Part shown: positions 1 to 9,640 of the stretch, one piece after another
Position numbering within the stretch: the first letter of the stretch is position 1
Layout: each line of letters starts with the position of its first letter
The notes under the pieces: model-generated
What the model was told of the DNA's origin: nothing
What the model saw: the letters and a program-made list of their open reading frames with translations, nothing else
Database searches by the model: none
NCBI GenBank assembly: GCA_964536865.1
Contig: CAZHYN010000021.1
Coordinates: forward strand, 1 to 9,640
DNA from: an uncultured Planctomycetia bacterium
GTDB taxonomy: Bacteria; Omnitrophota; Gorgyraeia; Duberdicusellales; 4484-171
Direction: 5' to 3'
Length of the DNA stretch: 9,640 nt
Program-made: the position numbers and the translations under genes

Positions 1-39
1 ATATTTTTTGATATCTTTCATCTTAACAATATACTCCAT
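1..39 (-). CDS. 5' end of an unidentified leftward gene that runs off the window
   Basis: Minus-strand ATG at 39-37 with AAGGAGGGGG (rc of 46-55) 9 nt upstream. The frame stays open to position 1 (MEYIVKMKDIKKY...), with a second in-frame ATG at 21-19. Only 13 codons are visible, so no product can be called. Confidence 0.3.
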   Translation of the reverse strand, partial: MEYIVKMKDIKKY

Positions 40-68
40 AGGCAACCCCCTCCTTCTTTAAAATAAAA

Positions 69-97
69 ACTATACTTTTTGAGGGGTTGCCTTTGAA
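69..97 (-). promoter_or_regulatory. Candidate sigma70-type promoter for the leftward gene
   Basis: Minus strand reads TTCAAA (rc of 92-97), a 17-nt spacer, then TATAGT (rc of 69-74), about 30 nt upstream of the ATG at 39. Confidence 0.3.
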
Positions 98-107
98 TTA
101 AAAATTT

Positions 108-137
108 TCCACCTGAGGTGGATTCGCCTTTGGCGAA
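108..137. other. Two abutting GC-rich stem-loops, terminator-like in both directions
   Basis: TCCACC-tga-GGTGGA (108-122) is followed immediately by TTCGCC-ttt-GGCGAA (123-137). The pair is flanked by AAAAATTTT upstream and AAACATTTTATTTT downstream. Confidence 0.35.
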
Positions 138-202
138 AACATTTTATTTTAGTAATTATTTTTAACATTTTGTTATTGTAACAACACAAATTCAATAAGA
201 AT

Positions 203-231
203 TTGACATATCTCTAAGTTTTTAGTAAACT
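203..231 (+). promoter_or_regulatory. Candidate sigma70-type promoter for the beta-barrel protein gene
   Basis: TTGACA (203-208), a 17-nt spacer, then TAAACT (226-231), about 19 nt upstream of the ATG at 250. Confidence 0.4.
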
Positions 232-249
232 ACTCCCTTGCTTGGAGAA

Positions 250-951
250 ATGAGAAAGAGGGGAAAGTTTTTGCTTTGTATTTTGATGGGGACAAATTTC
301 TTAATTGGAGTTAAAGTTTTCTCTGCTCCTTGTTACGGAACTTATTTACCTAAAAAAAACAAACTTCTTCTGGGGATTCAGACGCATGCCGTTTCTAAAC
401 GATATCTCAAAGATACTTACGGAAAATTAAGGAGTCTTCAGCACTTTCTACTCTTATCCTATGGAATTTTTGATTGGTTTTCTCTGGATTTAAAGGGAGG
501 AGTAGGGTTTATAAAACAGCATCCTTTGAATTCCGATGAGATAGATTATCCTTCTTGGTTAGGTGGAGGATATGGTTTTAGAGTTAAGCTTTATCATAAT
601 TCTGGGGATAAGATAAAAGTAGTAGGAGGGTTTCAACATATAAGTATTCATCCTAAGAGGGTTTATCTTGAGGGAGTAAAAAACAAAGCTGTTTTAGATG
701 ATTGGCAATTTTCCGTTTTGATTTCTAAGACCTTGTCCAGGTTTACTTCCTATATAGGAGTAAAGTGGTCAAGGATGGATTATATCCACTGGCATAGTGG
801 GATTAGGAAACGTAAAAAATCTGATTTAACTAAATCTTTAGGATTGATATTGGGTTTAGACATACCTTTAAGTAGAAGGACTTATCTCAACTTAGAGACC
901 CATTTCTTTGATGAAGAAGCCACAGCTATTTCTTACCTCTGTAAATTTTAA
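250..951 (+). CDS. Putative outer-membrane beta-barrel protein, family unknown
   Basis: From the ATG at 250 the N-terminus is a signal peptide: MRKRGK, a hydrophobic core, then VFSA/P. The body shows alternating hydrophobic/polar strand-like segments (GGGYGFRVKLY, KVVGGFQHISIH, YIGVKWSRMDYIHW, LGLILGLDI). The C-terminal residue is Phe (...ISYLCKF), typical of BAM substrates. I recognise no named family. Confidence 0.6.
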   Translation: MRKRGKFLLCILMGTNFLIGVKVFSAPCYGTYLPKKNKLLLGIQTHAVSKRYLKDTYGKLRSLQHFLLLSYGIFDWFSLDLKGGVGFIKQHPLNSDEIDYPSWLGGGYGFRVKLYHNSGDKIKVVGGFQHISIHPKRVYLEGVKNKAVLDDWQFSVLISKTLSRFTSYIGVKWSRMDYIHWHSGIRKRKKSDLTKSLGLILGLDIPLSRRTYLNLETHFFDEEATAISYLCKF

Positions 952-1087
952 TTGATAATAATAAAAAATAGGAAGGAAGACTTTCTAAGCTATCTCATAG
1001 AAAATCTCACATCAAGGAGATGATTGAGTTTAAAAGATATTTCGACTCCGATTTTCTTCTAGGAAGGGGTAATTTATTCGATGTAGA

Positions 1088-1477
1088 ATGAAACCCTACT
1101 TAACTGTAGTAGCAGGTTTAATTAGAAGAGGTAAGAAAGTTTTAATCTGCCAAAGGAAGAAGGATGATGTTTTTTCTCTATTATGGGAATTCCCTGGAGG
1201 AAAAGTAGAGAAGGGAGAGTCTTTGGAGGAGGCTTTGATAAGGGAGATTAGAGAAGAGTTAGGAGTAGAGATAAAGGTAAATAGGTTAGTTAATGCTTTC
1301 TATGATGAAAATGAGAAAATGCGGATAAAAGTTTATTTATTTGAGAGTAGAATAGTGAAAGGAGATCCTCAACCTCTAGAGTGCGAAGATGTTAAAATCG
1401 TAGATATAGATGAACTTGATAATTTTGCCTTAGCACCTGTAGATAAGAAAATTGCTCTTTTTTTAAAAGAAAATTAA
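1088..1477 (+). CDS. mutT: Nudix hydrolase, MutT-like 8-oxo-dGTP diphosphatase
   Basis: Nudix box GGKVEKGESLEEALIREIREELGV matches GX5EX7REUXEEXGU. The 129-aa length and the N-terminal VVAGLIRRGKKVLICQR strand resemble MutT. Confidence 0.85.
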   Translation: MKPYLTVVAGLIRRGKKVLICQRKKDDVFSLLWEFPGGKVEKGESLEEALIREIREELGVEIKVNRLVNAFYDENEKMRIKVYLFESRIVKGDPQPLECEDVKIVDIDELDNFALAPVDKKIALFLKEN

Positions 1478-2145
1478 CTACTCTCTATTTCTTCTATATG
1501 ATGCCTTATATCTTTACCTTTAATGATATAGTAAACATCTTCGGCAATATTGGTAGAATGGTCAGCAATTCTCTCCAGATATTTCCCTACTAAGATCAGT
1601 TTTATAGCTCGATTTATGTTTTTAGGATCACTAAGCATGTAAGTTAGCAATTCTCTAAATATCTGGTCGTTTAGATTATCCACAGTGTCGTCACGTTTAC
1701 AAATATCTCGAGCTAATTTTGCGTCTTTTTCTAAAAAAGCTTTTATAGCGTCTTCTAGCATTCCTTGAGCGATTTGAGCCATTCTAGGAACATCAATCAG
1801 AGGTTTAAGAGGAGGCTCTTTTAAGAGTTCTATGTTTCTCTCAGCAATATTTACTGCTAAATCAGCCATTCTCTCTAAGTCAGAATTTATCTTTATTACA
1901 GAAATTATAAATCTTAAGTCACTAGCTGCAGGTTGTCTTAGAGCAATGAGCTTTAAAGCGTGGTCATCAATCTCAATTTGAGCCATGTTAACTTTTTCTT
2001 CGTCTTCAAAGACTTTCTCAATTAGTGATTCATTTCTCTCTTTCAGTGATTCCACAGCATTTTTTATCATTCTTTTAACTAATTCCGACGTTTCTATCAA
2101 TTTTTGTTTCAATTCCTTTAATTCTTCGTCAAAACGCCTTTCCAT
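1474..2145 (-). CDS. phoU: Phosphate signalling complex protein PhoU
   Basis: Two PhoU repeats with conserved acidic motifs (ERMADLAVNIAE, ERIADHSTNIAED). The start is set at ATG 2145, which has AAGGAGGG (rc of 2151-2158) 5 nt upstream and follows the pstB stop (2159-2161). It is the last gene of the pst operon. Confidence 0.9.
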   Translation of the reverse strand: MERRFDEELKELKQKLIETSELVKRMIKNAVESLKERNESLIEKVFEDEEKVNMAQIEIDDHALKLIALRQPAASDLRFIISVIKINSDLERMADLAVNIAERNIELLKEPPLKPLIDVPRMAQIAQGMLEDAIKAFLEKDAKLARDICKRDDTVDNLNDQIFRELLTYMLSDPKNINRAIKLILVGKYLERIADHSTNIAEDVYYIIKGKDIRHHIEEIESS

Positions 2146-2158
2146 TTTTTCCCTCCTT

Positions 2159-2923
2159 TTAGCCAAATTTACCAGTAATATAGTTTTCTGTTCTAGTATC
2201 AGATGGGTGAGTAAATATCTTTTCCGTAGTATCAAATTCTACCAGTTCGCCCAGAAGCATGAAGCCACAAAATTGGGATACCCTCGCTGCCTGTTGCATA
2301 TTATGAGTTACGATAACAATAGTATATCTTTCTTTGAGTTTAAATAACAGCTCCTCGATCTTTAAAGTAGCGATAGGATCTAAACTTGAGCATGGTTCAT
2401 CCAGAAGTATAATCTCCGGTTTTAATATTATAACCCTTGCAATACAGAGACGTTGTTGTTGTTCTAAAGTTAAATTTTTTGCATTCTTTTTTAATTTATC
2501 TTTTAATTCATTCCACAGCCCTACACTTTCTAAAGCATGTTCTATCTCTTCTAATATTTTTGTTTTACTTCTGGAGAGGCGATGAATCTTTACTCCAAAA
2601 GCTAAGTTTTCATATACGGAAAGGTCAAAAACGTTTGGTCTCTGGAAAACCATCCCCACCTTTCTTCTTAAAGAGATAAGATCTATTTCAGGAAGATTAA
2701 TATTTTGATTGTCTATAATTACTTTACCTTTGGTTCTTACATTTTCAATCAGGTCATTCATGCGGTTAAAGCATCTTAAGAGAGTAGATTTTCCGCATCC
2801 TGATGGTCCAATAATAGCAGTGATATTTTTAGGAGGAATTTTTATGTTGATATCTTTAAGAGCCTGGAATTCTCCATAGAATAGATTTAAATTTATAGTT
2901 TGAATTTTGCAAGAATACTCCAT
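2159..2923 (-). CDS. pstB: Phosphate ABC transporter ATP-binding protein PstB, distal copy with a degenerate signature motif
   Basis: Walker A GPSGCGKST, Q-loop VFQRPN, Walker B ILLDEPCSSLDP, H-loop VTHNMQQAARV and the PstB-typical C-terminus ENYITGKFG are all present. The signature reads LTLEQQQRL instead of LSGGQQQRL. The ATG overlaps the upstream pstB stop by 1 nt (TAATG). Confidence 0.93.
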   Translation of the reverse strand: MEYSCKIQTINLNLFYGEFQALKDINIKIPPKNITAIIGPSGCGKSTLLRCFNRMNDLIENVRTKGKVIIDNQNINLPEIDLISLRRKVGMVFQRPNVFDLSVYENLAFGVKIHRLSRSKTKILEEIEHALESVGLWNELKDKLKKNAKNLTLEQQQRLCIARVIILKPEIILLDEPCSSLDPIATLKIEELLFKLKERYTIVIVTHNMQQAARVSQFCGFMLLGELVEFDTTEKIFTHPSDTRTENYITGKFG

Positions 2924-3675
2924 TAACCAAACCTACCTCTTATGTAGTCATCAGTGCGTTTATCTTTAGGAGAAGTGAAAAGAATAGAGGTAGTGTTACT
3001 TTCTATTAGCTCTCCCATAAGGAAGAAAGCACAACGTTGAGTGACTCTGGCTGCTTGTTTAGTATTGTTGGTTACAAGAATTTGCGTATAATTCTTTCGA
3101 AGTTCTCTCATAGCTTCTTCTATTTTTGCTGTAGAGATAGGGTCAAGTCCTGAACATGGCTCGTCGTAAAGAATGACTTCCGGTTCAACAGCTAAGACCC
3201 GAGCGATGCATAATCTTTGTTGTTGTCCTCCGGATAATTTGTTGGCGGATGTATGTAGTCGATCCTTTACCTCCTCCCAAAGATATGCTTTTTTTAGAGC
3301 TTCTTCCACTATAGAGTCAAGTTGCTTTCTTTTTTTTAAGCCGTGAACCTTAGGACCGTAGGCAACATTTTCATAGATAGTCATGGGAAGAATCTGAGGT
3401 AGAGCAAATACTATCCCAATTTTTTTCCTTAAGATGCTATCTTTCATTTCTCTTATATCTTTACCCTCTAATAAAATCTTTCCTTTCTGGTGGTAATTGG
3501 CGTGAAGACAATTTAGTCGATTTAGAGCTCTTAAGAAAGTAGTTTTTCCACTATTAGCTGGTCCAATAATTCCTAAGATTTCATTTTTATAAATCTCCAT
3601 ATTCAAATTTCTTAAAACACAAGAATCATCAAAGTAAGCACTTAAGTTGACAACTTTTATTAGGGGTTCTACCAT
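2923..3675 (-). CDS. pstB: PstB paralogue, proximal copy with a canonical signature but altered Q-loop and H-loop
   Basis: Signature LSGGQQQRLCIARV, Walker B ILYDEPCSGLDP and C-terminus DDYIRGRFG are canonical. Walker A is GPANSGKTT. At the Q-loop position the sequence is VFALPQ (Gln to Ala). At the H-loop position it is VTNNTKQAARV (His to Asn). Confidence 0.9.
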   Translation of the reverse strand: MVEPLIKVVNLSAYFDDSCVLRNLNMEIYKNEILGIIGPANSGKTTFLRALNRLNCLHANYHQKGKILLEGKDIREMKDSILRKKIGIVFALPQILPMTIYENVAYGPKVHGLKKRKQLDSIVEEALKKAYLWEEVKDRLHTSANKLSGGQQQRLCIARVLAVEPEVILYDEPCSGLDPISTAKIEEAMRELRKNYTQILVTNNTKQAARVTQRCAFFLMGELIESNTTSILFTSPKDKRTDDYIRGRFG

Positions 3676-4520
3676 AGTTTTTTCTTTCTAAAATAGGCTC
3701 GCAATATTATGCTTAATAGGTTCATTAAGAACACTAATACAATTAAAACTAGAGCTGTAGCAAAACTTAAAGAAAGGGGCATATTGGGTATTTGCGTAGA
3801 AATTACATAGAGATGGTAGGGGAGAGTCATAGCTTGGTCAAATATCGAACGAGGGAGTCTGGGAAGGTAGAAAGCGGCTACTGTAAAAAGGATAGGGGCA
3901 GTTTCTCCAGCTGCTCTACTTAAGGCTAGAACTGTTCCTGTAAGAATTCCTGGTAAACTATAGGGAAGGACACAGTACCTTATTGTTTGCCATCTTGTGG
4001 CCCCTAGAGAGAGACTTATTTCTCGAAATGATTTAGGAACAGCTTCCAAAGCCTCTTTAGTAGCAGTAATAATTACGGGGAGGCTCATTATTGCTAAAGT
4101 TAGGGAACCTGCTAAAATAGAGGTACCAAACTTTAGAAAGATTACAAACATAGCGAACCCAAATAGTCCATACACAATAGAGGGCACTCCAGAGAGGTTA
4201 ATTATAGCTAACTTTATAGTACGAGTAAGCCAATTTTCCCGAGCATACTCTACCAGATAGATAGCTGCTAGAATTCCTAAAGGAAGAGAAAAAACCATTG
4301 TTCCTAATATCAAATAGATTGTACCTATGATAGCAGGAAATATCCCTCCTTCTTTCATTCCATTTCTAGGAGGTTGAGCTAAGAATTCCCAGGTTAAAGC
4401 AGTAGCACCGTTCTTTATGATGTAGGCAATCACCCCTATTATGGGAAGAATGATTATTAAAGCGATCATTCCTAAAATAAAGAACGCTAATTTTTCTCTG
4501 GTTTTGGCATCAAATTTCAT
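3669..4520 (-). CDS. pstA: Phosphate ABC transporter permease PstA
   Basis: Multi-pass membrane protein with the EAA-type loop EISLSLGATRWQTIRYCVLP. It is the second permease in pstS-C-A-B order and overlaps pstB by 7 nt. Confidence 0.9.
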   Translation of the reverse strand: MKFDAKTREKLAFFILGMIALIIILPIIGVIAYIIKNGATALTWEFLAQPPRNGMKEGGIFPAIIGTIYLILGTMVFSLPLGILAAIYLVEYARENWLTRTIKLAIINLSGVPSIVYGLFGFAMFVIFLKFGTSILAGSLTLAIMSLPVIITATKEALEAVPKSFREISLSLGATRWQTIRYCVLPYSLPGILTGTVLALSRAAGETAPILFTVAAFYLPRLPRSIFDQAMTLPYHLYVISTQIPNMPLSLSFATALVLIVLVFLMNLLSIILRAYFRKKKLW

Positions 4521-5395
4521 TTCTTACTTCTATGTAAAAATAAATCAGCTAAAAAGTTTATTATAAAGGTGATAATAAAAAGAATAAGCCCTACACTAAA
4601 GAGAGCAAAATAGTGTAGGCCACCTCTTACTGTTTCTCCCATTTCGCTAGCAATAGTCGCTGTAAGGGTTCTTAAAGGTTCCAAAATAGAGGAGGGAATA
4701 ACGGGAGAATTTCCCGTTACCATCATTACTACCATAGTTTCCCCAATAACTCGACCTATTCCTAACATAATAGCAGCAATTATTCCTGAGGAGGCAGCAG
4801 GTAAAACTACTCGCCAGAGAGCTTGCCACCTCGTTGCTCCCAGTCCAAAGGCTGCCTCTTTGTAGGTATAAGGTACACTCCTTAAGGCATCCTCAGAAAT
4901 GCTTATGATAGTAGGAAGGGCCATAAATGCTAAAAGAATACTCCCTGTGAACCCACACATCCCTGTGGGGATAGAGAATATTCTTTTTACTAGTGGTCCT
5001 AGCCACACTATTCCTATGAATCCTAAGACTACACTGGGTATAGCAGCTAAAATTTCTATAAAGGACTTTAATATATTTTTTAAGAAAGAGGGAGCAACTT
5101 CAGCAATAAACATTGCGCAACCTATTCCCAAAGGTACACAGATGATAATGGCAAAGAATGTTACGTAGATAGAGCCAAGAAGGAGTGGGATAATTCCAAA
5201 AATTGGTGGTTCAGATATAGGTAACCATTTTCCTTGTGTAAGAAATTCTTTTAAGGAATATGAGTTGAAGAAGAAGAGAGAATCTTTAAGGAGAAATAAG
5301 AAGATTAAAATAACAAAGAGAATAATTAAAACACCACTTGCTTTTATAAAGAACTCTAATATACTCTCCTTAATCCTCTGTAGTTTAGGAGACAT
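4517..5395 (-). CDS. pstC: Phosphate ABC transporter permease PstC
   Basis: Multi-pass membrane protein with EAAFGLGATRWQALWRVVLP. It has an ATGA stop/start overlap with pstA. The start is placed at ATG 5395, 1 nt after the pstS stop. The track start at 5416 is a TTG lying inside pstS. Confidence 0.88.
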   Translation of the reverse strand: MSPKLQRIKESILEFFIKASGVLIILFVILIFLFLLKDSLFFFNSYSLKEFLTQGKWLPISEPPIFGIIPLLLGSIYVTFFAIIICVPLGIGCAMFIAEVAPSFLKNILKSFIEILAAIPSVVLGFIGIVWLGPLVKRIFSIPTGMCGFTGSILLAFMALPTIISISEDALRSVPYTYKEAAFGLGATRWQALWRVVLPAASSGIIAAIMLGIGRVIGETMVVMMVTGNSPVIPSSILEPLRTLTATIASEMGETVRGGLHYFALFSVGLILFIITFIINFLADLFLHRSKK

Positions 5396-5396
5396 T

Positions 5397-6245
5397 TTAC
5401 TTTTCGAGCGGAACAAACCCTACTTCTTCAACCTGCTTCTGCCCCTTTTCATTTAATACGAAGTCAATAAATATTTTCACTATCCCTCTAGGTTCTCCAT
5501 TAGTATACATAAATAACGGTCTGGATAGGGGGTATTTTTTTTCTATAACGTTTTGAGGAGTAGGTAAAAAATAATCCCCCCTATCACTAATAGCTAAAGC
5601 TTTCACCCTGGGGGAGAGATACCCCATTCCTACATAACCAATTGCTTGAGGGTTTGAGGCTACCTCTTCAACGATAGCTTGATTAGAGGAAAGGAGTAAA
5701 ACGTCAGAAGAGAATTCTTCCTTATTTTCTCTCTTATCTAGTTGAACTACTCTTTCCTTAAAATAAATATGAGTTCCTGAGCTTACTTCTCTAGAAAGAG
5801 CAACAATTGAAGAATCATACCCCCCTAATTGATTCCAGTTTTTTATTTTTCCGGTATAGATATCGTGGAGTTGTCTGATAGTTAATTTCTCAATTGGGTT
5901 TTTCTTATTTACAATTATTGCTACTCCATCAAAACCAATGATAATTTCATAAGGAATTACTTTCCATTTTTTAGCAATTTTCTTTTCTTTATCTTTTATT
6001 CTCCTAGAGGCAGTAGCAATATCCGTAGTTTTATTTATTAAAGAGGCGATGCCTACTCCACTACCACCTCCTGTGACTGCTACAAATATATAGGGGTACT
6101 CTTTCATGAACTCTTCAGCTAATTTCTGGGCAGCGTTTACTAATGTATCTGATCCTTTTACTTGGATGAAACCAGAAGGTTCTTGGATATCGGAAAACCA
6201 GGTACAGCTAATAAGAAAAATAATTATAAAAAGGCATGTTTTCAT
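5397..6245 (-). CDS. pstS: Phosphate-binding lipoprotein PstS
   Basis: Lipoprotein signal MKTCLFIIIFLISC with lipobox LISC. PstS-family motifs present: KGSDTLVNAAQKLAEEF, VTGGGSGVGIASL, SREVSSGT. It is the first gene of the operon. Confidence 0.9.
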   Translation of the reverse strand: MKTCLFIIIFLISCTWFSDIQEPSGFIQVKGSDTLVNAAQKLAEEFMKEYPYIFVAVTGGGSGVGIASLINKTTDIATASRRIKDKEKKIAKKWKVIPYEIIIGFDGVAIIVNKKNPIEKLTIRQLHDIYTGKIKNWNQLGGYDSSIVALSREVSSGTHIYFKERVVQLDKRENKEEFSSDVLLLSSNQAIVEEVASNPQAIGYVGMGYLSPRVKALAISDRGDYFLPTPQNVIEKKYPLSRPLFMYTNGEPRGIVKIFIDFVLNEKGQKQVEEVGFVPLEK

Positions 6246-6252
6246 CTTATAA

Positions 6253-6280
6253 ATTTTAACAAAAAAAAAATAACTGGCAA
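6253..6280 (-). promoter_or_regulatory. Candidate pst operon promoter
   Basis: Minus strand reads TTGCCA (rc of 6275-6280), a 16-nt spacer containing T10, then TAAAAT (rc of 6253-6258). Only 7 nt (TTATAAG) separate it from the pstS ATG, and no Shine-Dalgarno sequence is present. Confidence 0.45.
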
Positions 6281-6308
6281 GTTTTTTGTATAAGTCTTTA
6301 TTTTATAT

Positions 6309-6336
6309 TTGACCAAATATCATACAAGAGTATAAT
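6309..6336 (+). promoter_or_regulatory. Candidate pyrE promoter
   Basis: TTGACC (6309-6314), a 16-nt spacer, then consensus TATAAT (6331-6336). Nine nt separate it from the pyrE ATG at 6346, and no Shine-Dalgarno sequence is present. Confidence 0.55.
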
Positions 6337-6345
6337 TAAGTTGCT

Positions 6346-6882
6346 ATGCAAAAGAAAAAATTATGGCGACTTTTACGGAAACAAGCATTCTTCAGAAGAA
6401 GAATTAAACTTTCTTCTGGCAAGATAAGTAATTATTATATAGATGTAAGAAGAGTTAGTTTAACAGGAGAAGGTATATATTTGATTTCTCATCTCATATG
6501 GGATTTAATCAAAAATGAGAAAGTCACTGCTATTGGAGGTCCTACCTTAGGAGCAGATCCTATAATAGGAGGAGTGTGTTTTTTGGCTTACAAAAATAGA
6601 AAGAAATTAAAAGGATTTATAGTAAGGAAGACACCAAAAAAATATGGGGAAAGAAAGTTGATTGAGGGAGCAACACTTTCTTCTAAAGATAGGGTGGTTC
6701 TAATAGATGATGTAGCTACTACTGGTTCTTCTCTCCTTAAAGCTATAGAGATTTTAAAGAGAGAAAACGTAAGAGTAGTTAAGATAATTGTAGTCGTGGA
6801 TAGAAAAGAAGGTGCACGTCAGCTTTTCTCCAATCTAGATTATCCTTTTTTAGCTTTATTCACCAGAGATGATTTCCTGTAG
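6346..6882 (+). CDS. pyrE: Orotate phosphoribosyltransferase
   Basis: PRPP-binding motif VVLIDDVATTGSS and the OPRT N-terminal motif LSSGKISNYYIDVRR. Length is 178 aa. Confidence 0.9.
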   Translation: MQKKKLWRLLRKQAFFRRRIKLSSGKISNYYIDVRRVSLTGEGIYLISHLIWDLIKNEKVTAIGGPTLGADPIIGGVCFLAYKNRKKLKGFIVRKTPKKYGERKLIEGATLSSKDRVVLIDDVATTGSSLLKAIEILKRENVRVVKIIVVVDRKEGARQLFSNLDYPFLALFTRDDFL

Positions 6883-7636
6883 ACTAATTTTTTTTATATT
6901 TTCCTCTTTGTTTTTGGGATGCATTACTACAGAATATAATGTTGCTACCCATAAGCAAGATATATTTATCTACTCCACTGATAAAGAAGTTAACTTAGGA
7001 AGAAACCTCCATCGTAGGATTATAAAGGAATTTAAACTCTCTAAAAATCCTTTCTACATTAAAAGAGTAAGATCTATAGGGGAGAGGATTGCAGAAGTTT
7101 GTGATAGAAGAGAGTTTAATTACCGTTTTTATGTAATAGATAAAGATGAAAAAAACGCATTTAGCACTCCGGGAGGGTATGTATATATAAATAAAGGGCT
7201 ATTAGAGATTTTAAATAGCGATGATGAGATTGCCTTTGTACTTGCTCATGAGATAGCTCATATCGTTGCTCGTCATAGTATAAAAAAACTGCAGGCAGCA
7301 TTAGGTTATCAGATGTTAATTTTAGCTTCTCTACCTGCAGAAAAATCATCTTCTTTTTATCAGGGGCTTTCTTTTGCTTTGGCTCAGATTATGAGTGGTT
7401 ACTCCAGAGAAGATGAATTTAAGGCAGATGAGTTAGCAGTAAAGTATAGCAAGAAGGCAAATTTTTCTCCTTTAGCAGGGATAAAAGTATTAGAAAAACT
7501 TTATCAATTTCATAAGAAAGAAAAAGCCCACCCCCTTTCTTACTTTCGAACTCATCCCTTTATTCCTCAGAGGATAAAGCATATCAAGGAAGTTCTAGGT
7601 ATTCCTCTTACTATTTCTGATTATATGAATGAGTAA
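6869..7636 (+). CDS. M48-family zinc metalloprotease, predicted lipoprotein
   Basis: HEIAHIVARH (HExxH) with the downstream acidic motif EDEFKADELAVKY. Signal peptide with lipobox FLGC. It overlaps the pyrE 3' end by 14 nt. Confidence 0.85.
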   Translation: MISCRLIFFIFSSLFLGCITTEYNVATHKQDIFIYSTDKEVNLGRNLHRRIIKEFKLSKNPFYIKRVRSIGERIAEVCDRREFNYRFYVIDKDEKNAFSTPGGYVYINKGLLEILNSDDEIAFVLAHEIAHIVARHSIKKLQAALGYQMLILASLPAEKSSSFYQGLSFALAQIMSGYSREDEFKADELAVKYSKKANFSPLAGIKVLEKLYQFHKKEKAHPLSYFRTHPFIPQRIKHIKEVLGIPLTISDYMNE

Positions 7637-8571
7637 GGCTTTAAGCTAAGGATGAGCAATATCCCTAAAAAATTATGAAGAGTATGCACACATATAGAAT
7701 TGAATATATTTTGTGTGCGATCATAGATAAAACATAAAACTATACTCAAAGTAAATAGAGGAAGAAAGTTACCTAATCTTGGGTGGAGAAATGCAAATAT
7801 AAAGGAAACGACTAATGTAGATAGACCGAAAGAGATATTTTTTCTTAACCAGGAGAAGAGGAAACCACGGAAGAATAATTCTTCAACCACGGGTCCTAAG
7901 AATAATATCTGAAATATTAGGAGGGAAAGTAAAGCTTTACTTTTGATAGAAAAAATAACAGTTACTAGAGGATGGAATGTGCTTTCTAAGTTAAGTTTAT
8001 TAATAATAAAGTGGTTTAAAATTACCACAGGAACCAATGCTACTAAAGTGGCTGAGTAAATCATTACAAGTTTTTTAGGACAAAACGCCTGTTTCCTTAT
8101 TCCCAATCGATATTTCGGCAGAGAAGCAAGAAGACTCACTAAGATAATAACTTCTAAGATGAAATTGTAGATTATAAGGAAGGATAAATCCCTCTTAAGA
8201 TAATGATAATGTAAAAAGAATATAACCATAAAATTCAATATAAATATATTTAAGAGGACTAATATCATGGTTTTCCAGCTTTTTTCTTCTTTAATCTCCA
8301 CAATAAAGGGTTTGGAAGGCAGTAGTGGTTCTTTATTCAGTCTTTTTCCTATAATAATAAAAATGCTTGCCAACCCCAGAAAGAATAAGAGGATATACAG
8401 GAAAATAGTAAAGATAAGTAAAGGATTTTTGAAGAATTCCAGGGGATTTCCTTTAAACTTAACTACAGTTTTCTCTTTTTGGTAAGAAGTTTCTATAGAG
8501 AGATTTTGAAGAAGAATACCCCCTAAGAGAAGGAGAGTCAGTAAAAGATATAAAATTCTTTTATATTTCAT
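7621..8571 (-). CDS. CPBP (CAAX protease/Abi) family intramembrane metalloprotease with an extra N-terminal multi-TM region
   Basis: All three CPBP motifs lie in the C-terminal half: VVEELFFRGFLF (EExxxR), FIFAFLHP (FxxxH), VHTLHNFLG (HxxxN). The protein is hydrophobic throughout. It overlaps the M48 gene tail-to-tail by 16 nt. Confidence 0.85.
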   Translation of the reverse strand: MKYKRILYLLLTLLLLGGILLQNLSIETSYQKEKTVVKFKGNPLEFFKNPLLIFTIFLYILLFFLGLASIFIIIGKRLNKEPLLPSKPFIVEIKEEKSWKTMILVLLNIFILNFMVIFFLHYHYLKRDLSFLIIYNFILEVIILVSLLASLPKYRLGIRKQAFCPKKLVMIYSATLVALVPVVILNHFIINKLNLESTFHPLVTVIFSIKSKALLSLLIFQILFLGPVVEELFFRGFLFSWLRKNISFGLSTLVVSFIFAFLHPRLGNFLPLFTLSIVLCFIYDRTQNIFNSICVHTLHNFLGILLILSLKPYSFI

Positions 8572-8623
8572 TTTTTAAACTGGTTAGATAAAAAAAATAA
8601 TTTTGTTTTCTCACGAGTGTTGG

Positions 8624-9016
8624 TATGGAGGGAGGGATTTGAACCCAACCTCCGACGAAGTCGGAGTCTTTCTTTGTTGGGTCCAAAATAGCTTATCAAT
8701 TTAATATCAACCCTCATTTATTTAATCTAAAAGTTTTCTAATTCTAAATACAACCGGAGGGGGAGGGATTTGAACCCAACCTCCGACAAAGTCGGAGTCT
8801 TTTTTTGTTGGGTCCAAAATAGCTTAACGATACAACATTAATCTTCATCTATTTAACCTGAAAGCTTTTTAATTTTAAATATAACCAATGGAATAGAGAT
8901 TTGAACCCAACCTCCGACGAAGTCGGAGTCTTTCTTTGTTGGGTCCAAAATAGCTTATCAATTTAATATCAACCCTCATTTATTTAATCTAAAAGTTTTC
9001 TAATTCTAAATACAAC
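8624..9016 (-). repeat. Three tandem 131-nt units (A 8624-8754, B 8755-8885, C 8886-9016), each carrying a tRNA-Ser 3'-end-like segment and a conserved hairpin
   Basis: The anchor GATTTGAACCC recurs at 8636, 8767, 8898 and 9029 (the last is inside the real tRNA), giving an exact 131-nt period. The 59-nt core (8637-8695, 8768-8826, 8899-8957) is identical in A and C and 57/59 in B. Positions 8636-8777 equal 8898-9039 exactly (142 nt). The AT-rich tail of B has diverged but still aligns. Confidence 0.85.
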
Positions 9017-9107
9017 CGGAGGGGGAGGGATTTGAACCCCCGTCCCGACTTTAATCGGGAATCCGATTTCGAGTCGGACCCTTTAAACCAGACTCAGGCA
9101 CCCCTCC
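9017..9107 (-). tRNA. tRNA-Ser (anticodon CGA), type II with long variable arm, no encoded CCA
   Basis: The reverse complement folds as follows: acceptor GGAGGGG/CCCCTCC; anticodon stem TCCGA/TCGGA with loop CTCGAAA; variable stem CCCGA/TCGGG; T arm GGGGG-TTCAAAT-CCCTC; discriminator G. Length is 91 nt. It resembles E. coli tRNA-Ser(CGA) (TGCC.GAG..., CTCGAAA, GGGGGTTCAAATCCC). Confidence 0.9.
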
Positions 9108-9390
9108 TTATAATATCATAGGGGCTCTGCCCCTCCATGACGCTCCGTTCGTAAGAAAAACCAAAGAAGATAACCTTACTTCGCTGTCACCCCGAAGCAT
9201 ATTCAAAGAAGTGTAATTAAAGAAAAAGTATTCGCTCCGCTGACACCTCCGAAGTGTAACCAGAGAAGAGTAATTTTTAATAGCTGTTATCTTTCGTGTT
9301 CGCCTCCAAGTTATTTAAAGAAGCAAACTCCACTTACTGTTAGTTCTGTAAATTTATTAACCAATTAACTATAAGCTAATATACTACACA

Positions 9391-9473
9391 TGCGCGGGGC
9401 GGGATTTGAACCCGCAGGAGGTTTCCTCACAAGATCCTGAATCTTGCGCGTCTGCCAGTTCCGCCACCCGCGC
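9391..9473 (-). tRNA. tRNA-Leu (anticodon CAG), type II, no encoded CCA
   Basis: The reverse complement is GCGCGGG-TG-GCGGAACTGGCAGACGCG-CAAGA-TTCAGGA-TCTTG-TGAGGAAACCTCCT-GCGGG-TTCAAAT-CCCGC-CCCGCGC-A. Length is 83 nt. All four stems pair. Confidence 0.92.
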
Positions 9474-9477
9474 GTAT

Positions 9478-9506
9478 ACTTTATTTTTACCTCTTTGCCT
9501 TATCAA
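9478..9506 (-). promoter_or_regulatory. Candidate tRNA-Leu promoter (second identical copy at 9605-9633)
   Basis: Minus strand reads TTGATA (rc of 9501-9506), a 17-nt spacer, then TAAAGT (rc of 9478-9483). Only 4 nt (ATAC) lie between it and the mature 5' G at 9473. Confidence 0.45.
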
Positions 9507-9541
9507 TATTTTCAAAGCCTACTCTTTTCTCCCTTACCATT

Positions 9542-9598
9542 GCGGGAACGACTGATTAGGTGCTTGCCCTTTAGGCAAGAGTCGTTTCCGCCACCCGC
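9542..9598 (-). other. Rod-like nested stem-loop fused to the duplicated tRNA-Leu 5' fragment (possible tRNA-derived small RNA or pseudogene)
   Basis: Three nested stems: GCGGG 9542-9546 with CCCGC 9594-9598; AACGACT 9547-9553 with AGTCGTT 9580-9586; CTTGCC 9563-9568 with GGCAAG 9574-9579. There is a 9-nt one-sided bulge at 9554-9562. No T arm, anticodon arm or acceptor 3' strand is present, so it is not a tRNA. Confidence 0.4.
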
Positions 9599-9640
9599 GC
9601 GTATACTTTATTTTTACCTCTTTGCCTTATCAATATTTTC

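Follow-up and report, generated by a model that had tools for sequence, protein, structure and literature searches.

A tandem array of tRNA-end copies downstream of tRNA-Ser(CGA)

The question raised by the stretch of DNA analyzed here (contig CAZHYN010000021.1 of assembly GCA_964536865.1, positions 1 to 9,640, hereafter the window) is what kind of repeat is formed by a row of short modules that lie directly 3' of a tRNA gene and each end in a copy of the 3' end of that tRNA. The modules, three units of 131 nt, make up a tandem array at positions 8624-9039, directly 3' of tRNA-Ser(CGA). The array is a lineage-specific trailer repeat tied to tRNA-Ser genes, RtT-like in architecture and not a member of the Rfam family RtT (RF00391), known from the tyrT locus of Escherichia coli. 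The explanation that we favor, with an even balance of confidence and doubt, is that of an RtT-like, recombination-driven tRNA-trailer repeat, whose conserved hairpin would act as a terminator or insulator and as a structure of the tRNA trailer.

Tandem Repeats Finder delimited a repeat at 8630-9039 (period 131, 3.1 copies, 82% matches, score 652), and the tRNA-end core was found at 8629, 8760, 8891 and 9022, i.e. at a spacing of 131/131/131, the copy at 9022 being part of tRNA-Ser(CGA) itself. Both the exact period and the fourth core inside the tRNA, as described in an earlier account made from the letters of the window (the sequence-only reading), were thus confirmed. On the tRNA strand, each unit comprises an AT-rich trailer of about 40 nt, a variable part of about 25 nt, a nested hairpin and a 23-nt copy of the tRNA end, spanning the T-stem to the discriminator base (Table 1). 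The segment copied in each unit corresponds to the last 23 nt of tRNA-Ser(CGA) (9017-9039, GGGTTCAAATCCCTCCCCCTCCG), and CCA is not encoded. The unit tails are as had been reported, with CCCTCCCCCTCCG in unit B identical to the tRNA, and variants in unit A (CCCTCCCTCCA) and unit C (CTCTATTCCA); the tail of unit C, termed E2, is a U-rich variant (..TCTCTATTCCATTG). Identity between units was 83% for A-B, 82% for B-C and 94% for A-C, unit A matching unit C except in its tail, beyond which follow an unrelated flank and the CPBP gene. In addition, a perfect repeat of exactly 142 nt (8636-8777 = 8898-9039) extends on neither side; it had previously been noted as perfect, which it is, and as a block of two units, which it is not, since it consists of one unit with the 11-nt core GGGTTCAAATC at both ends.

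The hairpin has a 12-bp outer stem (UUUGGACCCAAC/GUUGGGUUCAAA, with one G.U pair), a 9-nt A-rich bulge, a 7-bp inner stem and a 3-nt loop, the inner stem-loop of unit C being CUCCGAC-UUC-GUCGGAG. Its predicted fold was more favorable on the tRNA strand (-25.6 kcal/mol, z -3.3) than on the opposite strand (-23.5 kcal/mol, z -1.6). The hairpin proposed in the sequence-only reading is therefore real, although its outer stem, given there as 7 bp, is longer and takes in part of the T-loop: the 3' strand of this stem partly coincides with the T-stem/T-loop sequence of the tRNA-end copy.

This arrangement has a precedent. Egan and Landy are said to have described in 1978, at E. coli tyrT, a 178-bp unit present 3.14 times, each with the last 19 nt of tRNA-Tyr, and Bosl and Kersten reportedly found in 1991 that one tyrT unit yields the rtT RNA. 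In the E. coli K-12 genome (NC_000913), a 178-bp period with 3.1 copies was detected from the 3' end of tyrV, tyrT and tyrV being two full genes within one repeat system. All of these units end in AATCCTTCCCCCACCACCA, i.e. the last 19 nt of tRNA-Tyr, from the T-loop, and each was scored at 133-137 bits by the Rfam RtT model. In the consensus structure of this model, the closing helix is made by an upstream GgGaaGGAU and, as its 3' strand, the tRNA-derived AUCCuuCcC. The array in the window is organized likewise, with tandem units 3' of a tRNA, each ending in a tRNA segment that forms the 3' strand of a closing helix. The rttR/rtT RNA is also mentioned in PMC3318445, citing Bosl and Kersten 1991.

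Table 1. Coordinates of the array, its hairpins and the adjacent genes and repeats within the window.
Feature	Positions	Strand	Basis and remarks
CPBP (Rce1-like) membrane protease gene	7621-8571	minus	Co-directional with the tRNA; downstream boundary of the array; syntenic anchor in relatives
Unit A, beta type	8624-8754	minus	Trailer, hairpin, terminal E3 copy at 8624-8646 with a 2-nt deletion
Nested hairpin, unit A	8638-8687	minus	Fold; plus strand 8650-8666 plus TCTTTCTTTG terminator-like
Unit B, alpha type	8755-8885	minus	Trailer, hairpin, E1 copy at 8755-8777 identical to the tRNA end
Nested hairpin, unit B	8769-8818	minus	Fold; plus strand 8781-8797 plus TCTTTTTTTG terminator-like
Unit C, beta type	8886-9016	minus	Trailer, hairpin, U-rich E2 copy at 8886-8908, GGGTTCAAATCTCTATTCCATTG
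Nested hairpin, unit C	8900-8949	minus	Fold; plus strand 8912-8928 plus TCTTTCTTTG terminator-like
tRNA-Ser(CGA), functional	9017-9107	minus	ARAGORN; Rfam tRNA, 55.6 bits
tRNA-Leu(CAG)	9391-9473	minus	ARAGORN
tRNA-Leu 5' repeat region, outside the array	9391-9640	minus	9459-9513 identical to 9586-9640; hairpin at 9542-9591

Turnover of units at the tRNA-Ser loci of related genomes

A 21-mer from the hairpin/core junction was searched in 185,579 species genomes and matched a single one, a Candidatus Omnitrophota metagenome-assembled genome (MAG) from the Guaymas Basin, on two contigs that are both tRNA-Ser loci; it was also present in two JGI metagenome contigs, at the same loci. More arrays were fetched by means of the neighboring proteins and of a spurious 43-aa open reading frame (ORF) of the array, for a total of 16 units at 9 loci. 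At the tRNA-Ser(CGA) locus, which is syntenic and adjacent to CPBP, contigs L007 and L009 each carry two units and a partial trailer, while the window carries the order beta-alpha-beta; in L007, L009 and L004 the last partial trailer runs directly into the CPBP start codon, and L004 breaks within the array. At the tRNA-Ser(GGA) locus, whose 23-nt end is identical, one unit was found in L006, the order alpha-beta in L003, the order beta-alpha' in L010 and L011, and at least 1.6 units in L005.

Divergence between the alpha and beta types is about 30% in the variable part, and each of the two is represented at both loci and in both lineages; unit 1 of L010 is an alpha/beta mosaic. Copy number ranges from 1 to 3, the order of units is swapped between strains, and a 262-nt higher-order pattern is present. 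Together with the core-bounded duplicate, these features point to recombination among units and between loci, and comparison of the arrays shows that units have been added and removed, rearranged, and exchanged between the tRNA-Ser(CGA) and tRNA-Ser(GGA) loci. The breakpoints of exchange fall at the 11-23-nt tRNA-end copies and the hairpins, the 23-nt end being common to both loci. Exchange would have proceeded by unequal crossing-over and gene conversion, and site-specific exchange at the 11-nt core GGGTTCAAATC is possible. The mixture of old and recent duplication or conversion read earlier from the window was upheld by the diverged alpha and beta types, the perfect 142-nt duplicate and the mosaic units.

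The tails are distributed in an orderly manner. In 8/8 arrays the first unit after the tRNA has a U-rich E2 or E2' tail (UCUCUAUU...), and E1 tails (UCCCUCCC...) are limited to second units. The internal E2 and terminal E2' tails share four derived changes relative to the tRNA end, indicating that they were copied from one another rather than being independently displaced tRNA ends, which favors unequal crossing-over or gene conversion over repeated insertion by an integrase.

A third tRNA-Ser gene is also involved. In L010, a decayed homologue of the hairpin lies about 130 nt downstream of tRNA-Ser(GCT), with 45/57 positions identical and the closing pair of the inner stem changed from C-G to U-A; its decayed tail aligns best with the 3' end of that same tRNA (score 13 vs. 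5-8). Copies were found only at tRNA-Ser 3' ends, at three different genes, and vary among strains in number and unit order. These were the two comparisons proposed in the sequence-only reading, and their outcome favors the array being more than a one-off duplication scar.

In more distant relatives (L018-L020, permease 72-76% identical), tRNA-Ser(GGA) has the identical 23-nt end and no unit, which argues that the array is a derived, clade-specific feature. In these array-less relatives polB, encoding a family B DNA polymerase, lies between tRNA-Ser(GGA) and the convergent permease gene (L018 2058-4600, L019 5320-7874, L020 1455-4009), and the array-bearing clade has no polB at this position; owing to the interposed gene, exact insertion boundaries are unreadable.

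The number of units in the window comes from a metagenome assembly that crosses the 142-nt perfect repeat, so that the count of three is less secure than the existence of the array. That the array, or its three-copy form, is an artefact assembled from collapsed or looped strain variants was nonetheless judged very improbable, and would concern the copy number only. The internal repeat, the end of the contig exactly at the end of a 55-nt repeat (a typical k-mer length) and the frequent breaking of related contigs in the array (L003, L004, L005) speak for such an error; however, at least five other samples (L006, L007, L009, L010, L011) yielded, in separate assemblies, one or two full units bordered on either side by unique sequence, and the differences between units could not be created by a looping error. 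Overall, seven related, independently assembled contigs confirmed arrays of this kind. The CPBP protein and an ORF of the array gave no record of another assembly of the strain or of sequence past 9640, and the contigs reached through PstB and the M48 protease were short.

Units as possible remnants of an integrative element

The copied segment, which begins at the T-stem/T-loop and stops precisely at the tRNA 3' end, is the one that Williams is said to have recognized in 2002 as the classical identity block of tRNA att sites, and direct repeats of a tRNA 3' part with the distal copy beside native flank are present here. The units could thus be miniature att-flanked remnants of a tRNA-targeting, cis-mobilisable-like integrative element, in which the attP would be hairpin-core(GGGTTCAAATC)-tRNA tail-trailer, and recombination at the T-loop core would be the work of a tyrosine integrase encoded elsewhere; 131-bp circles would be excised and re-inserted at any tRNA-Ser core, building and reshuffling the arrays. 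Fragments of tRNA genes (attR) left by integration are documented in PMC9897764. The distal copy abuts unrelated native flank at both loci and is decayed by C-to-T changes, as expected of a displaced tRNA end; hairpins are homologous at three tRNA-Ser genes, with the tail at tRNA-Ser(GCT) closest to its own tRNA end; and the contrast between alpha-beta and beta-alpha' orders, as well as the core-bounded duplicate, is easily made by core-to-core exchange.

Nevertheless, no genes of an integrase or mobile element were found beside the repeats. The window, a bacterial contig of 33% G+C, contains the pst-phoU operon and genes for a NUDIX protein, a phosphoribosyltransferase (pyrE-like), an M48 protease and the CPBP (Rce1-like) protease, and in L006 the neighbors encode a deaminase, a permease and a GH57 protein; L010 also had no integrase. 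There is likewise no coding capacity between the repeats. The absence of an integrase from the window had been remarked before, and holds for the second locus as well. A free attP, whose discovery would have made the array an ordinary att repeat, was not found: the exact core was absent from IMG/VR, blastn gave no match in phage and plasmid collections (which are incomplete for this phylum), and a relaxed core pattern in IMG/VR matched phage tRNA genes only, including two weaker matches to ordinary phage tRNAs. The same searches led to the rejection of a prophage or integrative and conjugative element scar. The four derived changes shared by the internal E2 and terminal E2' tails indicate copying of units rather than successive displacement of functional ends, and at the tRNA-Ser(CGA) locus identity to the tRNA has been kept by the older, distal copy but not by the proximal one. 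Integrases would also leave unexplained the analogous 5'-end repeats of tRNA-Leu and tRNA-Ser(GCT) described below. On balance, an origin from att-flanked elements appears unlikely, though with enough in its favor to be reckoned with.

Dispersal of a small element was likewise considered. The sequence-only reading had offered a hairpin-bearing miniature inverted-repeat transposable element (MITE) that targets tRNA 3' ends. This proposal was not supported, nor was that of a repetitive extragenic palindromic (REP) element, given that the 21-mer is confined to tRNA-Ser loci (one species genome of the 185,579, and the two JGI contigs), with no short target-site duplication.

The nested hairpin and the interior of the units

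Among 14 close copies, mean pairwise identity was 98.9% in the stems, 87% in the bulge and loop, 75% in the trailer and 77% in the variable part, variation in the hairpin being limited to the bulge (9-11 nt) and the loop. Two C-to-U changes in the stems are compatible with pairing (U.G) on the tRNA strand only, since the opposite strand would acquire A-C mismatches; there is also one T-to-G change at the G.U position, and the C-G to U-A change in the decayed tRNA-Ser(GCT) copy is compensatory.

No tRNA-like fold was found in the units. ARAGORN at default and -ps thresholds returned only the two real tRNAs of the window, and at very relaxed thresholds gave scattered junk calls, one of which (80%) overlapped unit C; Rfam cmscan of 8300-9640 at E<=10 returned the two tRNAs and sub-threshold noise, with nothing in the units. 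The units therefore lack a tRNA 5' half, as had been stated, and a tRNA pseudogene or armless tRNA (also sought with the mitochondrial settings of ARAGORN) and a known RNA family (Rfam, E<=10) were both discarded.

A bearing of these results is on the reading of the array as decayed tandem duplicates of the whole tRNA-Ser gene and a 40-nt spacer (91 + 40 = 131), the distal copies being pseudogenes whose interiors drifted into the hairpin and whose inner hairpin is the former variable arm. The period indeed equals the tRNA length plus the 39-40-nt spacer that runs from the last tRNA-end copy to the CPBP start in L007 and L009, GAGGGTTG of the beta units, 92 nt before the unit end, corresponds in place to GAGGGGTG of the tRNA, 90 nt from the tRNA end, and E. 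coli tyrT/tyrV offers two full genes in one repeat system. The likeness of hairpin and variable arm noticed in the sequence-only reading holds for position, the 17-nt inner hairpin taking exactly the place of the 17-nt arm with a partial match, but not for sequence, since the similarity is not significant. The same is true of the unit interior against the tRNA body (p ~0.07-0.15 overall; p ~0.12 and local p ~0.07-0.16 in single tests; no significance in global, local or ungapped comparisons vs. shuffles), so that derivation of the interior from the tRNA body was rejected. A perfect 12-bp stem from the "anticodon region" to the T-loop is not expected of neutral decay, neither ARAGORN nor Rfam detected a tRNA-like fold, and the hairpin at the tRNA-Ser(GCT) locus resembles those of the other units, not the variable arm of its own tRNA. 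Whole-gene duplication followed by decay is thus a decidedly unlikely source of the units.

The shape of the hairpin also brings to mind folded single-strand recombination sites of the integron attC or CTX phage attP type, in which case the units would be "cassettes" without ORFs at the T-arm. The attC core consensus is RYYYAAC/GTTRRRY, and the base of the outer stem (ACCCAAC...GTTGGGT) fits it; the boundary of the tRNA-identical sequence falls inside the stem, on its 3' strand, the two strands fold unequally (G.U pair, one-sided bulge), and the order and number of units vary among arrays. In contrast, no IntI-like gene was seen; the hairpin, about 50 nt long and with a 9/0 bulge, is not built of two boxes and extrahelical bases as attC is; a GTTRRRY core is missing from the tRNA where the junction falls; the similarly shaped tRNA-Leu hairpin is off consensus; and the chance of a match to the 7-mer consensus is about 1 in 1000. 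Such a relationship is held to be very improbable.

Three further candidates were set aside. As to coding, the short ORFs crossing the units change frame from unit to unit, a consequence of bulge lengths of 9 to 11 nt, and these unconserved frames mark the 42-43-aa ORFs as spurious. A diversity-generating retroelement (template/variable repeats) was dismissed as the differences between units are not adenine-specific, and a clustered regularly interspaced short palindromic repeat (CRISPR) array as the inter-hairpin parts are homologous to each other (75-77% identity), hence not spacers. ORFs of 42-43 aa are placed in the arrays by public and JGI gene calls (L007 285-416, L009 523-651, L010 2698-2826, window 8568-8979).

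Terminator-like sites on the opposite strand

On the strand opposite to the tRNA, the inner stem-loops have 7 bp, five of them G-C, and a GAA or AAA loop, and lead into TCTTTCTTTG or TCTTTTTTTG. This combination of a G+C-rich stem-loop and an immediate U-tract is that of an intrinsic terminator, an activity that is predicted only. In a terminator scan, the three inner hairpins with their T-tracts were the best terminator-like sites of the whole window, and the same sites were found in L009 and L006; in L006, the hairpin is the sole terminator-like site from the stop codon of the convergent permease gene to tRNA-Ser(GGA).

Other sequence features of the region were recorded. On the minus strand (8878-8905), a promoter-like pair separated by 16 nt is made up of TTCAAA, the T-loop copy in unit C, and TATATT, at the beginning of the trailer of unit B; the remaining unit junctions carry TGTATT, and the promoter scan was not passed there. 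The two tRNA genes (9017-9107 and 9391-9473) have 58-64% G+C vs. about 33% in the genome, and the nearest genome is from the Guaymas Basin, a combination that would fit growth at high temperature.

A recombining trailer repeat with a putative terminator

Taken together, we favor the view that the array is a trailer repeat of RtT-like architecture maintained and rearranged by recombination, of which the hairpin is probably the selected part. On the opposite strand, the inner stem-loop and U-tract would halt convergent or antisense transcription ahead of the tRNA gene. In a tRNA-strand transcript, the complete 12+7-bp hairpin, pairing part of the T-loop, would give the precursor trailer a stable structure; the U-rich E2 or E2' tail that follows the first hairpin would fit a weak sense-strand terminator or attenuator, and with the E2 tail the hairpin may attenuate read-through into the downstream gene. 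The first unit could have originated from a partial duplication of the tRNA 3' end or from an old insertion into the T-loop.

Several points weigh against this explanation. The statements on the function of hairpin and array are all deductions from sequence. Covariation is weak, with one compensatory pair, most pairs invariant and 38/500 shuffles reaching the observed score; besides, the hairpin 21-mer was the search key for four loci, and its translation lies inside the peptide that found four more, so that the apparent conservation of the 3' half of the hairpin is inflated. For these two reasons, selection on the hairpin is held to be likely but not proven. At the tRNA-Ser(CGA) locus, CPBP is co-directional with the tRNA and there is no obvious convergent gene to stop, hence the opposite-strand sites could only stop stray antisense transcription there; on the tRNA strand, the hairpin has no proper U-tract after E1-type tails. 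Homologous recombination leaves the source of the hairpin unexplained, as well as its arrival at tRNA-Ser(GCT), which shares only GGGTTC.AATCCC with the other two tRNAs. Finally, the RtT covariance model (gathering threshold 45 bits) was unmatched in 8300-9640, even at E<=10, which makes the link to RtT one of architecture and not of demonstrated homology.

Related repeats at other tRNA ends

Beyond the scope of the sequence-only reading lay the E. coli tyrT RtT precedent, the terminator reading of the opposite strand, and a repeat at the 5' end of tRNA-Leu(CAG). The latter consists of a promoter-like TTGATA-17-TAAAGT and the first 15 nt of the gene, repeated perfectly 127 nt upstream. The window ends at the end of the 55-nt tRNA-Leu repeat, the number of tRNA-Leu repeats thus being open-ended. 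Between the two copies, the hairpin at 9542-9591 has the shape of that of the Ser units and an unrelated sequence. Its outer stem of 12 bp uses tRNA-derived bases and has a G.U as fifth pair, its inner stem is of 6-7 bp, and its bulge measures 9 nt. Contig L009 begins within an arm homologous to this hairpin, and at 280-400 contains GAGCGAAGCG(T/A)CAAGGAGG twice, 34 nt apart, together with a strong hairpin (z -3.9). About four degenerate repeats of about 43 nt, each with a GGAGG-type copy of the tRNA-Ser 5' end, lie in the interval from tRNA-Ser to tRNA-Leu (window 9108-9330), and a small hairpin, GGAGGGG-CAGAG-CCCCU, adjoins tRNA-Ser at about 9120-9136.

Upstream of tRNA-Ser(GCT), L010 contains a perfect 66-nt repeat within 5053-5270 (5053-5118 = 5162-5227), with a scaffold gap between the copies; the block is a repeat of the 5' half, made up of a tRNA piece ending in the anticodon loop (AAGGCAGCCGCCTGCTAA) and of the region upstream. 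On the 3' side of the same gene, 32 nt away, a nested hairpin at 5357-5423 folds at -49 kcal/mol (z -6.5), with a 12-bp outer and a 13-bp inner stem and no Rfam match. The design at tRNA 5' ends is the same, an end fragment being repeated with its flank and paired into the 12-bp stem of a nested hairpin. All tRNAs observed here with end-fragment repeats are of class II, with a long variable arm, namely Ser(CGA), Ser(GGA), Ser(GCT) and Leu(CAG), to which class E. coli Tyr also belongs; the examined loci contained no class I tRNA gene for comparison.

The Ser units, the tRNA-Leu 5' repeat and the tRNA-Ser(GCT) 5' and 3' repeats might all result from one unrecognized process, a conjecture to which we attach little probability. 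Hairpin modules would then be copied or inserted at loop positions of class II tRNAs (T-loop, D-loop, anticodon loop), one strand of the 12-bp stem being the tRNA junction and the other its complement, such that the hairpin would specify or record its target, as a folded single-strand recombination site or a template-switching product. If true, the modules would represent a new kind of non-autonomous element targeting tRNA ends instead of passive repeats.

To our knowledge, the E. coli tyrT locus has since the 1970s provided an example of trailer repeats of tRNA 3' ends, which were never explained and are usually treated as a one-off; a literature search on tRNA-end tandem repeats turned up only a general paper on att fragments and passing mentions of rttR. 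A second, unrelated RtT-like example in a distant phylum alters this view. The occurrence at three tRNA-Ser genes, the turnover among strains, the conserved hairpin and the 5' counterparts suggest a recurrent organization of the flanks of highly expressed tRNA genes, in which repeats of tRNA-end fragments may play roles in termination, insulation or promoter multiplication, and the array family provides comparative material on how such repeats begin. In practical terms, arrays of this type break metagenome assemblies, yield spurious 40-aa ORF calls and mimic the att sites of integrated elements.

Comparison with known systems

With MITE, REP and REPIN elements the units have in common that they are short non-coding modules in several copies, with a 12-bp inverted repeat forming a hairpin; they differ in that they are not dispersed, are arranged head-to-tail and have no short target-site duplication. 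With intrinsic terminators between convergent genes they share the 7-bp stem with five G-C pairs, the 3-nt loop and a U-tract of 7-10 nt, and at the tRNA-Ser(GGA) locus the location between the convergent permease gene and the tRNA, whereas the stem of the array sits in a longer hairpin within a tandem repeat that copies a tRNA end, and the tRNA-Ser(CGA) locus has no adjacent convergent gene. As in the att repeats of integrative elements, the 3' part of a tRNA is directly repeated from the T-loop to the 3' end, and the distal copy is decayed and abuts native flank; accretion of copies in tandem is another shared trait. Unlike in those elements, only 108 bp lie between repeats, with no integrase, no cargo and no attP found where searched, and internal tails copy each other in place of successively displaced ends.

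Of the known systems, the RtT repeats of E. coli are the closest, their architecture agreeing with that of the array. In both, about 3.1 copies follow directly upon the 3' end of a tRNA, in the orientation of that gene; the tRNA segment that closes each unit, 19 nt long in E. coli and 23 nt in the array, extends from the T-arm and is paired with an upstream complement in the main helix; and GC-rich internal hairpins and a class II host tRNA are found in both. There is, in contrast, no similarity in sequence or to the covariance model, and the unit has 131 nt vs. 178 in RtT. Another difference concerns which tRNA-derived bases are paired: in RtT these are the T-stem and the acceptor 3' strand, minihelix-like, and the CCACCA tail is left free, whereas the array pairs the 5' strand of the T-stem and the T-loop, leaving free a 14-nt C-rich tail with no encoded CCA. 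On account of this difference and of the unmatched model, the array is named RtT-like and is not assigned to RF00391. It further departs from RtT in forming a family at three tRNA-Ser loci, with a predicted terminator on the opposite strand.

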